Part shown: piece after piece, positions 14,576-53,383 of the stretch | Numbering within the stretch: the stretch's first letter is position 1 | How the letters are laid out: each line of letters opens with the position of its first letter | NCBI GenBank assembly: GCA_013265495.1 | Contig: MU058065.1 | Coordinates: 7,006,302-7,070,301, forward strand | Source of the DNA: Vicugna vicugna | Taxonomy: Eukaryota | Direction: 5' to 3' | DNA length: 64,000 nt | The notes under the pieces: generated by a model | Seen by the model: only the letters and a program-made list of their open reading frames with translations | The model's database searches: none | What the model was told of the DNA's origin: nothing | Translations under genes and position numbers: made by a program

Positions 14576-17164
14576 TGTCAGCCATCTCTCTGTGCAAGCC
14601 CTGCTTGGTGATCGCCTGCCTTACTCTTGGAATGTGGCGTTCATGTCCTGGGGTGTCTGTCACAACTAAGGCCTGAATACCTCTGTGTGAATACCAGGTT
14701 ATGAGCACTCTCATTTTATAGGTGAGGAAACTGAGGCCATCACAGAGAGGATAGGGACCTCATTCGAGGTAATACCCTCAGTAAATGGGGAAGGCAGGGT
14801 TTTGACAGGGGCGAGTAGGGGTCTGGAGCCAGTCAGAGATACTTCTTATCATTCTGTGATCTTGATCTAAAAGATTATTCATCCATAGCCTGAAATGCTT
14901 TAGGCTGCTTCATCTGAGCTCGTTCCTACTCTGGAACTGGTGCTGGATTGGCCTGGAAAACAGAGAAGACTGCAGCAAGAGGGGCTTGAGTTAGACACCT
15001 GGTAGAACTTCCTGACTGTGAGAGGGTGGACTAATGGGCAGGGAGGTTGTCCTCTTGGCCTTCTTAGGCAGAAGTGTTGAGAAACAAGGGAGACAGGTCT
15101 CAGTGTGGAGTGATCTACATAGAGATAGTGACAGAGGTAGGGATGGAATGACTTCTGGAGGAGGATCTTCTACTCCCCAAAGAGGGAGTCCTCTCTGGAC
15201 CTGCTGGCACAAGTCAGAGTGCTGAGAATTTAAATGTGGGGTCGGCCTGACCTTCAGGGTAAAGAAGATGACACCGCTGACCCAGCATCTGCCGGCCACC
15301 TGCTCAGTGCTGCTCCTGGCCGAGTGGGGTGGGGCTTGTCCTGATGCCCTTGGACCCTTAGCTGGCCCTGCTCTGTGGGGCAGCTGGCAGGCTTGGAGAG
15401 TAGTGTCTGCTCATGGAACATTCAGTAAATCAATACCCTCCCGACTGAATGTGCCTTTGGTCCTCCGTAATCTCTGCCATCGGGTGGAGGTTGGAAGGCT
15501 GGAGCCACACTCAGAGCGGGCGCAGAGCTCTTGGCCAGTGGCCTGAGCGGCACGTCTGCCCTCTTGCTGAGCTCAAATATCCAGCTTCAGGCCAGGGAAG
15601 AGGAGAACGCGCAGTCTTTCCCCCTGAACCAACCCCTCTGCCTCCTGCCAGACCTGTAGACAAATGCAAGTTAGTCGGACCCGGCAAGACCCCAAGAAAT
15701 GGACTCTAACCGTGTCCAAGAAAAGAAATGCAACCTCCTATTGATCAAAATTTTTTTTTTTGCTACCCAACTAAAGCTGCTTTTTACCCCTCATTTCCTT
15801 ACTTTCTCCCTTTCATCTTCCTTTCCTCCCTTCCTTTCCCCCTCCCTCCTTTCCCAATAGTTACAGATCATCTACTAGATGGTGGGCCCTGCCCGAGCTC
15901 TGTGCTGTAAAAAATGGTGCCTTGGAGTTGCCTGCAGACAAGAGCAGGGTGTGTGTGTGGCAGGATCAGTCAGGTACACCATCTGCGGTGACCCATGGCC
16001 AAATGGAGAAGGATGTTGGCCAAGAGCCATGCTTCTCAGGAGAGATGAAACTTCTGGGGATAGTGGTGATCAGAGGTGGATGGCTTTGCAGAGGGGCTGC
16101 CTTTATCCTGGGCCTGGGACAGTAGATGGCATTGAAAACAGAATTGTTTTTCACTAAAAGTGGCATAACAACATTGCTTAAAGTCTAGAAAGTTGAGGGA
16201 AAGAAAGCAATCAAATTGGCCTGGCCTTCCTCTCACCGCTGCCCCCATCCCATGGTGGGGTGGGTGGGGTGTTAGTGGAATTTGGGGGTTGGTGAAAGAG
16301 GGAATGTTGGAGAAGGTGGAGGTGAGAGTGAGGGGAGCACTGAGGAACTGGATTCACGGGGTCCAAGAGGAGAACAACCAGGAGATTAAGAGAAAAGACA
16401 GCACACAAAATCCTGCTGCAGGTAAGCCCCTGCAGCCCAGATCTGTTGCCCAGTGGATGTGGCTGAGTGATGGGCGCTAAATGAGAGCAGAGCTGGTGAG
16501 AGCTGTCTTTCTGGATTGTTCTGGAGTATTCCTTGATGGACCTGTTCAGGCCCTGGGTGTTCCTCCGTGCCTTTGGAGGCTGTGCCTGGCCCTCTTTCTC
16601 CTGGTCCAGGCCAGTTTGCCTGGGGCTGGCTCGTGAGTGCTCACTGAGGCTACTTTGCTTTTTGGCAAAGTTTAACTTCTCCACTATGGTGTTGGCTTTC
16701 AGGCCCATCTCTCCATCAGCCTTGAAGAGGCCCTACCTCTCTGGAGCTGGTCTGCATCTTGCCCACTCCTCCTGCCTACTAGCTGGTGTGCTTCTCTTCA
16801 GGCAACAGAGCCCGTTCCTTTCAGTCCGCTCCCCGAGGCCCTGCTTTCTGCCCAATAGAAAGTTCTGAGGCCATTTATGGGAGAGTTTTCAGTGGATCTG
16901 GGATCTGGAGGATGGTCTGTCCTTCCTTCTTTCCTGGTTCCCCTCCATCTACTTCCCCAGCTGCTCGTGGATGACTCATCTCCTGTACGTCTCTTTCTTT
17001 CTTCTGTATGCTCCGTTTCCTGCCAAGAGACCTTCTAAAATCCTGGCGAAGTCACTGAGCTCACACACCTTCAGTAATAGGCAGCTTCCTCTGAAGTTAA
17101 GAAGGACAGTGTCTTAGAGAAGCTCGGGAAAGGATGAAACCCAGGGCACCCTAGGGAGGCAGTA

Positions 17165-35161: not shown

Positions 35162-36050
35162 AGGTTGTGGGCCACACCCAGGGACCCCTGGATGGGAGCC
35201 TGTACGCCAAGGTGAAGAAGAAGGACTCCCTGCACGGCAGCACTGGGGCTGTCAACGCTGCGCGTCCTGCCCTTTCGGCCACCCCCAACCACGTGGAGCA
35301 CACCCTCTCTGTGAGCAGCGACTCGGGCAACTCCACGGCCTCCACCAAGACAGACAAGACCGATGAGCCTGTCCCGGGCCCCTCTGCTGCCGCTGCTGCC
35401 CTGAGTCCCGAGGAGAAGCGCGAGCTGGACCGCCTGCTCAGTGGCTTTGGCTTGGAGCGAGAGAAGCAAGGCACCATGTACCACACCCAGCATCTCCTGT
35501 CCCGCCCAGTGGGGGGCCCTGCTGCGCCCTCCTCTGGCCGCCACGTCGTCCCCGCCCAGGTTCACGTCAACGGCGGGGCCTTGGCATCCGAGCGGGAGAC
35601 AGACATCCTGGATGATGAGCTGCCTAACCAGGATGGGCACAGCGTGGGCAGCATGGGCACACTGTCCTCCCTGGATGGGGTCACCAACACCAGTGAGGGG
35701 GGCTACCCAGAGGCCCTGTCTCCACTGACCAATGGTCTGGACAAGCCCTACCCTGTGGAAACTATGGTCAATGGCGGGGGCTACCCCTATGAGTCTGCCA
35801 GCCGGGCGGTGTCTGCCCAGGCTGGCCACGTGGCCCCCATGCGGCCCTCCTACTCTGCACAGGAGGGTTTAGCTGGCTACCAGCGGGAGGGGCCCCAGCC
35901 AGCCTGGCCACAGTCAGTGACCACCCCCCACTATGGCCATGATCCTAGCAGCATGTTCCGCTCTCAGTCCTTTCCGGAAACCGAGCCCCAGCTGCCCCCA
36001 GCTCCAGCCCGTGGCGGGAGCAGCCGGGAGGCTGTTCAGAGGGGCCTGAA

Positions 36051-36082
<32 letters not shown>

Positions 36083-36733
36083 CTCGCCCACCTCCTCGCC
36101 AGCAAGAAAGAGCCCACTTGGAGGGTCTTGGGCTCAGCAGACCTAGCCCCCAGCCACTGGCAGAGCCCCCCATGCCTGGCCTCCCTGAGTTCCCACGGGC
36201 AGCCTCCCAGCAGGAGATCGAGCAGTCCATCGAAGCCCTCAACATGCTGATGCTGGATCTGGAGCCAGCCACGGCGGCTGCCCCCCTGCACAAGTCCCAG
36301 AGTGTCCCCGGGGCCTGGCCAGGGGCTTCCCCGCTCTCCTCCCAGCCCCTCTCTGGCTCCTCCTGCCAGTCCCATCCACTGACCCAGTCCAGATCCGGCT
36401 ATATCCCCAGTGGGCATTCCTTGGGAACCACTGAGCCGGCCCTCCGGTCCTCCCTGGAGTCCGTCCCTCCTGGCAGGCCTTACTCACCTTATGATTATCA
36501 GCCATGTCCAGCTGGGCCCACTCAGACTTACCATCCAAAGAGCCTAGCCTCCTCCTCGTCTGCCCTCCTTCCAACCACCCAGAGTGCGCCAGGGCCTCAG
36601 CAACCTCCGGCCTCTCTTCCTGGCTTCACCGCTCAACCTCAGCTCCCACCAAAGGAGATGACTTCAGACCCATCACGAACTCCGGAGGAGGAGCCATTGA
36701 ACCTGGAGGGGCTGGTGGCCCACCGGGTAGCAG
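35162..36733 (+). CDS. TNS1: Tensin-1 large central exon: (E)[20 protein letters not shown]...[16 protein letters not shown]
   Basis: Lies within the 645-aa ORF 35002-36939. Acceptor ttgtag, donor gtaaga. 1572 nt, phase 1-1. Closely matches recalled mammalian TNS1. Confidence 0.97.
36058..36081 (+). repeat. Pure (CAG)8 encoding a polyglutamine tract in TNS1
   Basis: Read directly from the sequence: [10 protein letters not shown]. Confidence 0.95.
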
Positions 36734-41720: not shown

Positions 41721-42478
41721 ATATTTGCCCCTGTGTGGCCCCTGTGGTGTGAGATGGGTTGGAATCAGCTGGGGTGAATAAAAGGACATCGCTGGTCCTT
41801 ACAGTTCATCCAGGCTGGCTCATCTTAAGAACATTTCAGCGGTGCCCAGCGGTTTGGGGCAGTAGTAGGAAATCCTAAGTGGTTCCCATGGAAGGGGATT
41901 ACTAAGGAGGGGTGTGATGGAAGACTGAAGGGCTGAGGGGTGCTCTGATGCTAGAGAAGATGACCCTCGGGCTCAGACTAGCAGGGTCACTGGTGAATCC
42001 TGGAAGAGACAGGTGACCATGAGAGTGGGGAGGTCCTGGGATGGGGCTGCACTGAATGTGAGGGCAGGTGGGGCAATAGGATTGAAATCTCCTGGTCCCA
42101 GGCCGGTACCTTCTTGCTCCATGCTGGGGTTAGAAAAGAGAGATGTGGGTGGTGTCCTTCCGGACAGTAGCAAGTCCACCTGCCCTTTGGAGAAGCAAGA
42201 CCCTGGACCACCCTCTTTTCTTGTCTGCCACCCTGCCCACCTCCCTCCAGTGTGTGGCCAGATCCCAGACTCAGAACACCAATTAATCTTGATTTTCTCT
42301 TTGTTTTTGTTTTGTTTCGTCTTGTTTAATGCCTTGTCCCTTGCATTCTCCGTGTGTCCCGTGTCCATCTGTCCCCTGTGCCGTGGGTGTGGTGCCTTCC
42401 TTGCCTGGTGTCCTCCCCTCCACCCTGCCTCCCCTCCCTGCTTCCCTCTGCCGGCTCCCCTGGGGTGGGGATGGGCAG

Positions 42479-42565
42479 CGTACAACGCCAGGCTGCAGGG
42501 CATTGGGCGGAGTGTCAGCTCCGGGCACCATCCTCTCCACCGGCTCCGATCCACCTCTCTCTCTG
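42479..42565 (+). CDS. TNS1: Putative alternative cassette exon of tensin-1: (A)[28 protein letters not shown]
   Basis: cag acceptor after a 202-nt AG-free pyrimidine/GT-rich zone, donor gttggt. 87 nt, phase 1-1, no stop, and it fits between ...AHRVA and GVQAREK. (T)GCATG cluster downstream. Confidence 0.7.
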
Positions 42566-45500
42566 GTTGGTTCCTCTCCTCCTCCCATCTTTGCTCTCAG
42601 TTTCTCCCTCTTGCTTTCCGCCTTCATGTGCTATTCCCGCTAGACTTTTACCCACTTTCTTCCACCCTCCTCATTTCCCACTTCTTCCTCACTTTTCTTT
42701 CTCTCCCTCTTCTGTTCTTTTCTTTCTATCTTTTTTATTCTCATGGCCCTCCTCCTCTCTCCTTGCCCACCTCTCCTCCTCCCTCTCCCTCCTCCCTCTC
42801 TTTTCTGCATGAGCAAGTGCTCCCACTTCTGCATGGACACGGCATGATGCTTCCAGCCTTGGCCTTCCCTGCTGGGAACAGGATCTGGGGTGACTAGACC
42901 AACTTTCAGAGTCCTGGTGGACACTCAGGGCTTTGCAATGAGGGTGCTCAGTGAGAGTTCAGGACAGCCTGGCTCTTTAGCTGCCCCAACCAGACCACCT
43001 GGGCCACCTGGCCAGAGCCTCAGTGGGTGCAGTACTTTGCATGGACCATCGGGCTCAAGACACAAGCTGGTGCCCTGGCACCAGCTGCTCCATCCACTCT
43101 TGAGTACACACTCCCTGGGGACAGGGCACCCCCTCTGACCTCATCCTGAGCCTCTGATCCTAGGAACCAGGGCCAAGAGTCAGAAGCCCTGGGTGTGGTC
43201 CCGGCTCTGCCTGCGACCACCTCTGTGACGCTTCTGGGTGAGTCTCTGAATTGCTTTGAGCTCAATCTCCCAGTGTGACAGAGGATCATAGCCCTGCTGG
43301 GTGCTATTTGCACGATGCCTTGATGCACCCCAATATCGTGAACCCTCCATCAAGGGTCACGTTCCTCTCTTTGTTGTAGTCCACTAGCGTCTCTCTCCCT
43401 GGCTCTCGGACATCCAGCCCGTAGGCTTTTAACCCTGGTGAGGGACTCCCCAAACCCTTTCCCTGCTCCGTGGAGCCCGGCGGCCCAGGTAGGGAGATCA
43501 TGTGCTCGGGCTTACCCTGTGCGTGGCCGTGAGCAGTTCTGGGAGAAGGCTCACCGGGCGGTGGGAACTGTTGACTCCCAGAGGCAATACCTGGTGCTTC
43601 CACGACCCCTCTTTCTCCCAGCCCATGGATAAAGGGAAGATGGCTCTAGAAGAACGCGCCCTGTCCACCTCCTCTCCTGCCCTTCACCCTGCTCTCGGCC
43701 CAGGGGTGGGGAGGCGGTGTTCCGCTGGGCCTGGGGGCTTGGGGGCGGTTCTGGGGTGGCCCTGTCCGGAGGGGAGCTGGCATGGCTTGCCCTGGGGCTG
43801 CTAGTGTGACTGCCGTGTGGCTTTCTGGTGCCCTGGCCCAGCAGGTGGCCTCCCGGATCCCCTCACTCCTGGAGCCCCAGGCAAGCAGTTGGACACCCAG
43901 CCCTGCCACCTGGAGCCGAGGAATCCAGCCTTTGGAGATTGGAAGGCTGGAAGGAAGAGCTGGGTCTGGGGGGTAGAAGCGTCCAGTCCAGGGGGCATAG
44001 GGGAGGCATGTGATGAAGCCCGACCTGAGGGCATTTGTCTGCAGGGGCCGAGGAGCGGCTGGCAGCCATGCTCTATCAAGGTGGTGTATCAGTGTGTGCT
44101 GGGGCTGCAGCCCCTAGAGTTGCCCGTGTGTGTGTGTGTGCGTGTGTGTGCGCGTGCGCAAGCGCGCCCACGTATGTGATGAAGGGGGTTCACGGCCTCA
44201 GGTGCAGCCCACTTTAGGTGAGCTTTGGAGCCATCTGTCCCCCTACGCGCAGCACCATCCTGGGGGGCAGAGTGAGAACCCACAGGAGGTGGGGCTATTC
44301 CTGTGCCCTGCTTGTCTTGTCTGGTGGCCGGTGTGGAGGCCCTGGGCTGCAGTGACTGCCATCCTCCAGGCGGTGGGGAAGGCCTGATGCCCACAGGGTG
44401 TGAGCGGCTCTTGGAGGACGACAAAGGGCCTCTGGATGTAGCGTATTATCATTGTAAGGGCCACTTTCTGGCCATCAGGGTATCCGTTCCTCTGGGATGG
44501 GAGCTCGAAGGCTGGACTCACCAGCTTTGCTGGGAAGACCTTCCAGGGCCCCTTGCCTGCCTCTCTTTCCTCCTTTCTTCATGAGCTCCCTCTGGGCCCC
44601 GGTTTCCTGGTGGGAAAAGGCTGATGGTGGAGCTTCTGAGGGTGACTGTGCCCCACTGCTGTACCTGTCGGGCTAAGGCTGTGTGCGCCCCCGCCTGTGT
44701 ATGCATGTGCCTGTGTGCGTGCAGGAAGAGACAGAGGCCCTGAGAGCGGGGCCAGGGCCAGGAGGCTGAGAAGGTCCCAGGGTCGGGGGTGGTGGGGGAG
44801 GTGGGCAGTGTGGGGAGCAGGCCTATTTTCATTATCCATCCGTCTCTGGGATGTGAGGGAGGGGTGTTCTCCCTCTGACACTGGCTGTCAGCTTGTGTCC
44901 AGACATCCCAGCTTGGCTGAAGAACAATGGAGCTCTCTTCTCTCCCCTCTGCCGTGGCCCGCCTCCCCTCCCATAGAGAAAGACAAGGGAGAGAGAACAT
45001 GGCTCTCTGAGCACTCCAGGGCATATCTGGGCCTGCCAAGGGGGACAACAGTGAGACACTGTGTTCAAAGAATGTGAGAGGCCCAGGCCGGCCACTGGGG
45101 CTGTGGGGGCACTCTGTGGGAGAGGGGCTGCCCCCGTGGGAGTGGAATGCAGGGTCTTCCCCCATCCGCAGTGGAGACTCTGCCCTGCAGCACCCTAGCT
45201 CTTTTTACATCAACCTGTTCACACCCCTGCCTCTGGACAGAGCATGCTCCCGCGTGCCGGTCTGGTAGCAGCGGCAAGGGGGCTTGAAGAGGTGTGATTG
45301 CTCTCAAGTGTCTGACCACCTTGGGCTGGGGTCTCGCATCTTCACAGCCCAGAAGCCCCTCCAACAGTCCAGCCTCCTCTCCGGGTGGCTGCAACCATCT
45401 GCAGTCCCTGAACATGGAGGACGTTTTGGACGTGTCAGGGAGAATGTTCTCTGTCCCTCTGGGAGATTCAGGCCCTCAAATTGAAACAGACCCATTTCTC

Positions 45501-47578: not shown

Positions 47579-47775
47579 GGGTGCAGGCTCGGGAGAAGCA
47601 GCCTGGAGAGCCCCCAGCACCTCTCCGGAGGCGGGCGGCCAGCGACGGGCAGTATGAGAACCAGTCGCCAGAACCCACATCCCCCCGTAGCCCGGGGGTC
47701 CGCTCCCCTGTCCAGTGCGTCTCCCCGGAGCTGGCTCTCACCATCGCTCTCAATCCTGGAGGGCGGCCCAAAGAG
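47579..47775 (+). CDS. TNS1: Tensin-1 coding exon: (G)[31 protein letters not shown]...NPGGRPKE
   Basis: Acceptor tcccag, donor gtgagt. 197 nt, phase 1-0. Confidence 0.96.
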
Positions 47776-52209: not shown

Positions 52210-52302
52210 TGCGCTCCCCCCCAGGTCTGGCCAAGACACCCCTGTCTGCTCTGGGCCTGAAACCCCACAACCCAGCGGATATCTTGCTGCACCCCACCGG
52301 CG
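52210..52302 (+). CDS. TNS1: Tensin-1 coding exon: (V)[30 protein letters not shown]
   Basis: Acceptor gcacag, donor gtgagt. 93 nt, phase 1-1. Confidence 0.95.
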
Positions 52303-52871: not shown

Positions 52872-52895
52872 TCACCAGAAGACTGATCCAGCCAG
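52872..52895 (+). CDS. TNS1: Tensin-1 24-nt micro-exon: (V)TRRLIQP
   Basis: Acceptor ttttccttag, donor gtaggc, phase 1-1. Resembles recalled human VTRRRIQP. Confidence 0.85.
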
Positions 52896-53344
52896 GTAGG
52901 CGGGCAGTGGCATGCAGGTGTGACCTACGTGGACACATGGCTGGGCACAGCCTCCCACTCAGGATGTGTCTGCATGGTCAGGGACACTGAGTCACCGGGT
53001 GGGGGGCTGCCTCTCACCAGGCCCGCACACTCCTGCTTGAGGCGTGGGGACAGTGACAGGGACGCCGGGCTGCTCCTGAGAGTGAGGCCCCCTCCCCTGG
53101 GAGCCCTGGATCCGGGGGCATTCAGGATGGACTGCACCCCCTTACCCTACAGCTCTTCTGGGGAGCTTGTCTCTGCCCTGGGCTCACCCTGCTTTCCCAA
53201 CTGCCTTTTCTCAGCAAAGTCTCTCAAGAAATAATCCCTGTTAACCCCTCTCTCTCTTTCCTTTTTTGCTCTCCCTTTCCTCTTCATCACCTGCCTCTGT
53301 CCTGCCTCTCCTTCCTCCCCACTTCTCTTCCCATCTTCCCTCAG

Positions 53345-53383
53345 AGGAGGATGAGGGGAAGGGGGTGACAGAGCTTCCCAAAG
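53345..53383 (+). CDS. TNS1: Tensin-1 39-nt micro-exon: (E)EDEGKGVTELPK
   Basis: 114-nt AG-free pyrimidine tract, acceptor cctcag, consensus donor aag|gtaagt, phase 1-1. Resembles recalled human EEDEGKVVVRLSE. Confidence 0.85.

Follow-up and report, generated by a model that had tools for sequence, protein, structure and literature searches.

The stretch of DNA analyzed here (hereafter, the window) comprises 64,000 nucleotides (nt) of the Vicugna vicugna genome (GenBank assembly GCA_013265495.1, contig MU058065.1, positions 7,006,302 to 7,070,301 of the forward strand) and carries exons of the tensin-1 gene, TNS1, including an 87-nt exon at window positions 42479-42565 that is a conserved alternative cassette exon. 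We have hardly any doubt that this exon is real. It is catalogued in public predicted annotations, and its regulation and role are uncharacterized in the literature found. Taken as a whole, the reading that we favor, and consider probable, is that of a cassette as old as the amniotes, with skipping as the default and inclusion in a fraction of the transcripts made by differentiated contractile tissue.

The 87-nt exon and its conservation

A preliminary description, made from the sequence, had assigned the gene to TNS1 and proposed a stop-free, frame-preserving 87-nt cassette exon of symmetric phase 1-1; its coordinates and junctions match the alpaca record, and a sequence check found AG and GT at the exon borders, a length that is a multiple of three, symmetric phase, and no stop codon. 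The donor after position 36733 and the acceptor at 47579 complete the junctions, all in phase 1, with flanking introns of 5745 and 5013 nt:

35162..36733, + strand: upstream TNS1 exon, 1572 nt, donor CAG/GTAAGA (rat counterpart, 1581 nt); its 3' end encodes the invariant [12 protein letters not shown] plus one base of a split codon
42479..42565, + strand: cassette exon, 87 nt (phase 1-1), coding for [29 protein letters not shown]
47579..47775, + strand: downstream exon, 197 nt, starting with GVQAREK and containing RRRAAS (rat counterpart, 197 nt)

Alpaca (XP_072817718.1) has exactly the same 29 inserted residues, and dromedary isoforms (X1-X4 and X7) match them at 90% identity, with the junctions as proposed; over the 524 residues of the large exon of the window, 1 difference separates it from the alpaca record and 3 from the dromedary one. 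Orthologs are found in predicted isoforms from human (XP_054199576.1), mouse (XP_006495934.1), marsupials, and turtles. The exon is, therefore, not hidden, as the preliminary description had called it: it appears among the isoforms predicted for many species, alpaca, dromedary, human, and mouse among them, so that it is real but not novel, an outcome which that description had itself attached to prior annotation. The RefSeq predicted isoforms of alpaca, dromedary, human, and mouse show the same exon and junctions without structural difference and are silent on regulation and function. The exact junctions recur in 120 of 120 full-length records, a set found by searching for the exon and hence not a frequency, as well as in alpaca, human, chimpanzee, mouse, horse, bat, and turtle records.

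Forms with and without the exon coexist among the human, mouse, horse, bat, opossum, and turtle records. Of the six human records listed, inclusion is seen in one (XP_054199576.1) and skipping in four, two of which are the 1735-aa form and NP isoform 8, and the sixth starts downstream; in house mouse, three XP records include it, two NP records and one UniRef record skip it, and the Mus insert has 28 residues (84 nt). The statement that the exon is absent from canonical human TNS1 is borne out, as the 1735-aa record and the curated human and mouse NP records examined all skip it. Among 32 turtle records, 24 have a 29-residue ortholog, 7 skip the exon, and 1 lacks the anchor. Because turtles carry the exon, it predates the split between mammals and reptiles, which took place more than 300 million years ago. 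No bird, crocodile, lizard, monotreme, or fish appeared among the 120 of 124 and 120 of 123 matches listed, a weak negative given the strict word filter.

Mammals were compared using one record per genus (40 genera). The insert has 29 residues in 33 genera, 28 in 4, and 27 in 3, so that its length changes by whole codons only; Y2, N3, L6, P19, H21, S27, and S29 are invariant, with the ends nearly fixed and the middle drifting. In addition, a bat-like genomic read-through containing the Rousettus exon peptide continues as SLS-S-WF, whereas the spliced Rousettus protein reads SLS-R-VQ; the replacement of Arg by Ser at the split codon indicates a phase-1 donor at the same place in the bat.

Splice sites and flanking motifs

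The sequence elements around the exon, numbered relative to its acceptor (negative values) or donor (positive values), are as follows:

42275..42476, + strand: AG exclusion zone (AGEZ), 202 nt, the longest of 14 acceptors examined (next, 157 and 114 nt)
42281..42327, + strand: predicted distant branch points, A42286 (-193, yTnAy) and A42292 (-187, full YNYTRAY), with U-rich tract
42326..42330, + strand: second TTAAT, A at -150, a weaker candidate, not retained in either of the other-species read-throughs that cover it
42454..42478, + strand: G-rich acceptor without proximal pyrimidine tract
42566..42805, + strand: weak donor, CTG/GTTGGT (consensus at 6 of 9 bases), and the CU-rich tract of 240 nt behind it
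42806..42846, + strand: RBFOX-type cluster, TGCATG at +241 (42806) and +265 (42830), GCATG at +277 (42842)
43038..43043, + strand: third TGCATG, +473

The AG-free zone has exactly the extent given in the preliminary description: the flanking AG dinucleotides are at 42273-74 and 42477-78, and the 202 bases between them contain none; no other AG gap in the window, on either strand, is as long (next, 170 and 159 nt on the + strand and 143 nt on the - strand). At the AG frequency of the window, approximately 16 would be expected in 202 nt; however, the zone contains only 14 A, and given this A-poor composition, the probability of finding no AG is 0.027, so that the gap mainly reflects depletion of A. 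Such depletion also best explains a 322-codon stop-free frame (41929-42894) that spans the exon and both flanks and resembles read-throughs called as genes in public contigs (P0002, P0003, and P0126). Two further long zones in the gene precede an exon at 430 (271-427, 157 nt) and the 39-nt cardiac exon discussed below (53229-53342, 114 nt).

Among the 14 A residues of the zone, the sole match to YNYTRAY is TCTTGAT, with A42292 at -187; A42286 (-193) and A42329 (-150) fit only the looser yTnAy, and the A residues closest to the acceptor (-8 and -57) do not fit the branch consensus. The 25 nt that follow the predicted branch points are 88% pyrimidine and 76% U, and the stretch covering -193 and -187 is retained in read-through translations from other mammals (P0126 and P0003). 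The branch point is, according to these motif matches, likely to lie at the predicted -187 or -193 rather than at -150. The TTAAT motifs noted previously at 42283 and 42326 are both present and a distant branch is likely, but the second motif seems not to be conserved and the full consensus match at -187 had been missed. The acceptor itself is 41% pyrimidine at -25 to -4, compared with 64-95% for the other 13 acceptors, and it is because the acceptor lacks a pyrimidine tract of its own that we infer the use of a distant branch.

The sequence hallmarks of a distant branch point are all found here, namely, an AGEZ of at least 150 nt, with a branch consensus and an adjacent U-rich tract close to its 5' end and no such consensus near the acceptor. 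AGEZs of this length occur in 165 of 67,334 human introns, and the respective exons are more often alternative and enriched in cassettes (PMC1431707). The layout is like that of the exons described by Gooding et al. in 2006, PTB exon 11, GABBR1 exon 23, and alpha-tropomyosin exon 3, which combine an AGEZ longer than 150 nt, a branch motif and U-rich tract at its 5' end, and alternative use, although the branch point of the TNS1 exon, unlike theirs, is predicted only (PMC1431707). The few long-AGEZ exons tested in that work are regulated by PTB. Overall, it appears quite likely that U2 and U2AF would assemble at a branch point 187-193 nt upstream, from which the spliceosome would scan to the first AG.

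On the donor side, the 240 nt downstream of the exon are 87% pyrimidine, in agreement with the tract of approximately 240 nt reported in the preliminary description, and PTB-type tetramers number 43 in the first 250 nt after the donor vs. 7.1 window-wide. The three TGCATG motifs and the GCATG at 42842 were all located where that description had placed them. (U)GCAUG occurs four times within 500 nt downstream of the exon and not at all within 250 nt upstream; three TGCATG in one 500-nt stretch are unique in the window, which contains 14 on the + strand, with a Poisson probability of approximately 2e-4 for a 500-nt stretch chosen in advance and a weaker one for a cluster noticed post hoc. As judged from translations, P0126 and P0002 could have retained both near TGCATG motifs but not the GCATG at 42842. 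A search for orthologous flank DNA in metagenome contigs gave 0 matches, and a HMMER search over 50% representatives gave 4, of which 2 are orthologous read-throughs and 2 are unrelated repetitive proteins. The pyrimidine tract behind the donor also forms an AG gap, of 170 nt (42644-42813), that ends at the first TGCATG and then AG, which places the RBFOX sites on a possible decoy acceptor.

The standard reading of such an arrangement, following the positional rule, is that RBFOX bound downstream relieves default skipping imposed by weak sites and CU-rich silencers. In the TNS1 case, PTBP1-type binding to the CU-rich tracts flanking the exon, in combination with the weak donor, would repress it, and RBFOX would switch it on from sites 240-270 nt downstream. 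This combination of repression and activation is, in our estimate, slightly on the probable side. A rather unlikely alternative is that inclusion results mainly from loss of PTBP1-type repression (or from MBNL) in cells with low PTBP1, for example, neurons and mature muscle, with the TGCATG cluster playing a minor part. Such a mechanism would fit the six-fold excess of CU tetramers directly behind the donor and the distance of the RBFOX sites from it (241-473 nt), and it agrees with the finding that the distant-branch-point exons tested were all PTB-regulated (PMC1431707) and with the lack of a Tns1 row in five supplementary files of an RBFOX1/QKI study (PMC6103745) and in one supplement of an Rbfox2 heart study (PMC8881802). 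It does not readily explain why a triple TGCATG cluster unique in 64 kb should occur here, with both near motifs seemingly kept in other mammals while the tract between them drifts, and the PTBP1 and RBFOX mechanisms can co-operate.

Inclusion in tissues and the inserted peptide

The evidence on expression comes from rat. In an rMATS table with 11 Tns1 rows (supplement 3 of PMC6613909), an 84-nt exon lies between exons of 1581 and 197 nt, with introns of 5065 and 4581 nt. The values are 0.33, 0.23, and 0.34 in aorta and 0, 0.03, and 0.02 in passage-9 cells (false discovery rate, 0), but the row is a false "MXE" pairing of the 84-nt exon with a 93-nt exon and does not give true percent-spliced-in (PSI) values. 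We assign the values to the 84-nt exon because its 93-nt partner is near 1.0 in the cultured controls of other rows; the row overstates PSI because the denominator falls when a 24-nt exon is included, and true inclusion in rat aorta may be modest.

Since this sole expression evidence compares tissue with culture, the exon could instead be included at low or moderate levels in most intact tissues and lost in culture, without muscle specificity. We regard this as unlikely: its presence in the annotations of very many species (216 stored records with the exon and 49 without, in a selected set) points in that direction, but the curated human and mouse records and a chicken cardiac cDNA skip the exon, and the motif architecture is of the regulated-exon type. 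One small file of PMC5577920 did not contain the exon; two of the six TNS1 rows of PMC9343278 correspond to other events, and the remaining rows may hold it; and two of the ten Tns1 rows in file 3 of PMC5062968 are both alternative first exons, such that its other rows or files may hold the exon. Tns1 is not mentioned in the main text of PMC13658770, the review PMC9687257 does not contain the string "splic", and a literature search, with thin coverage of subscription journals and partial coverage of supplements, found no paper describing the 87-nt exon.

The insert falls within the disordered region of tensin-1, after residue 877 of the 1735-aa human form and 22 residues ahead of S899, the Ser of RRRAAS. 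Two short linear elements might be added by its 27-29 residues. The first, YNA[RK]LQ, would lengthen a helix-prone stretch: none of the 40 genera shows a change in the upstream [12 protein letters not shown], which the exon extends with helix-friendly residues, with a helix cost of 0.30-0.35 for the junction 14-mer with the exon vs. 0.36-0.42 without it, on a crude scale. The second, a basic Ser cluster, would add phosphorylation sites and might tune partner binding or the formation of condensates. The Akt substrate consensus is RxRxxS/T. The RxRxxS motif highlighted in the preliminary description is present in the window, in turtles, in marsupials, and in 29 of the 40 mammalian genera (30 with an older rhesus record), and RxxS of some kind in 38, and this putative Akt-type site is, by its distribution, ancestral. 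Its two arginines are encoded by CGG and CGA in the window, which makes CpG decay a likely route of Arg loss.

In chicken numbering, the insertion point lies between A1032 and G1033, that is, at the end of the segment T936-R1037 and just ahead of R1037-V1169, which have been credited with slowing barbed-end growth and with capping, respectively (PMC2120419); the chicken cardiac cDNA of that study skips the exon. The two elements would, therefore, stand at the border of two proposed actin-end-binding segments. Phosphorylation of the TNS1 disordered region by p38, ERK, and AKT limits or dissolves condensates (PMC13396368), so that additional Ser sites are a plausible lever. We propose this two-element role of the insert tentatively, as a possibility. 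One candidate idea was rejected, namely, that the exon arose by tandem duplication of the beginning of the following exon, both segments ending in Pro-Leu and a basic Ser motif (hhalign probability 0.3%, E = 0.13; no match of the exon hidden Markov model in four skipping proteins).

If only the splicing event were conserved, with selection acting on the frame and RNA elements, the peptide would be a near-neutral spacer. The mean column conservation of the exon, 0.77 vs. 0.94 and 0.95 for its flanks across the 40 genera, and the repeated R>Q and R>W losses at arginines with CGG or CGA codons in the window are in line with this explanation, which we nevertheless hold to be very improbable, as YNxxLQ/R and PxxHRxRS are shared down to turtles with a free middle, the pattern of two motifs and a linker. 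That the exon is a pseudo-exon, a chance open frame propagated by automated annotation, is close to refuted: despite its weak splice sites and its occurrence in predicted (XP, automated) rather than the curated records listed, the frame is kept from turtles to primates with codon-wise indels, and the same exon was called by rat RNA sequencing.

Several observations count against the reading that we favor. Distant branch points are marked by only one-fifth to one-half of long AGEZs (PMC1431707), and intronic conservation was judged through codon-ambiguous translations of three records. Apart from the mispaired row, no plain skipped-exon row for the 84-nt exon passed the thresholds among the 11 Tns1 rows of PMC6613909; it appears in 1 of these rows, on the tissue-vs.-culture sheet only, is absent from the RBPMS-overexpression rows, and does not class as an RBPMS target in that table. 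The lack of Tns1 rows in the RBFOX supplements mentioned above weighs in the same direction, and inclusion in camelids is suggested by annotation. As for the peptide, RxRxxS exists in the window, as described previously, but is missing in 11 of the 40 genera: it is broken in human (R>Q), in chimpanzee (R>W), in dromedary, and in 8 more, mouse and lemurs among them, and an Akt site is thereby ruled out as the essential function in human. An amphipathic helix, also considered, is not supported by the hydrophobic moment, which is low (0.07-0.13) and equal in both forms. Finally, actin polymerization was unaffected by the chicken fragment N790-K1060, within which the insertion point lies (PMC2120419).

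Neighboring cassettes and implications

The published TNS1 cassettes found are two other exons, of 24 and 39 nt. "Tns1 exon 22" of rat smooth muscle cells is activated by RBPMS, MBNL, and RBFOX2 (PMC12721327); it belongs to the same cluster of disordered-region cassettes of the same gene and is higher in differentiated smooth muscle (PMC12721327 and PMC6613909). It probably corresponds to the 24-nt exon (52872-52895 in the window), itself followed by a GCATG, and not to the 87-nt exon, because RBPMS overexpression raises the 24-nt exon in the 2019 table, where the 84-nt exon is not listed. A ventricle-enriched TNS1 isoform has a 13-residue insert with peptide evidence (PMC10592692), and chicken cardiac tensin has a 12-residue insert (PMC2120419). 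The 13-residue insert corresponds to the 39-nt exon (53345-53383), which is likewise tissue-biased, in frame, and located in the same disordered actin-capping neighborhood; peptide evidence exists for this exon, whereas none was found for the 87-nt exon.

Closer to the 87-nt exon, the window contains one further cassette:

43845..43963, + strand: second cassette, 119 nt, out of frame (one base short), its donor poor (4 of 9)

Its counterpart in the gene models of cetaceans, elephant, pangolins, dog, meerkat, and hedgehog is annotated as a 40-residue in-frame exon that follows the 87-nt exon; by comparison, the cassette looks decayed in this lineage. Among other features, positions 44321-44398 are 81% identical to a 24-residue extra segment of a single automated dromedary model (P0009), probably a prediction artifact, and positions 15860-15953, inside a 30-kb intron, match an extra segment of dromedary isoforms with a small gap and have no match in the alpaca record. 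Within the 93-nt exon, an AG located 15 nt from the start (52210-52224) matches a 78-nt rat form in the rMATS table and represents a conserved alternative acceptor. The human isoform X40 (P0136; 911 residues), in which a short first exon is spliced to the 197-nt exon, hints at an internal promoter; its first-exon peptide had no match on the + strand of the 64-kb window.

For a splicing specialist, the regulatory layout is of the textbook kind and offers little surprise. Its fullest extension, possible but doubtful, would be a switch of approximately 300 million years, operated by RBFOX and PTBP1 and relying on a distant branch point, that would give contractile cells a tensin-1 with a longer binding helix and a kinase cluster by the actin-capping edge, altering adhesion or condensates; the isoform and its phosphosites would be invisible owing to the reliance of proteomic and cell studies on the skipping form, and primates would have repeatedly weakened the Akt site. 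The functional work on TNS1 cited here was done with the canonical form that skips the exon (PMC13396368). By the principle set out in PMC1431707, splicing could be disturbed if a deep-intronic variant introduced an AG into the 200-nt zone. TNS1 is a main adhesion scaffold of smooth and cardiac muscle, and the insert, retained since the divergence of turtles and mammals, is likely functional.

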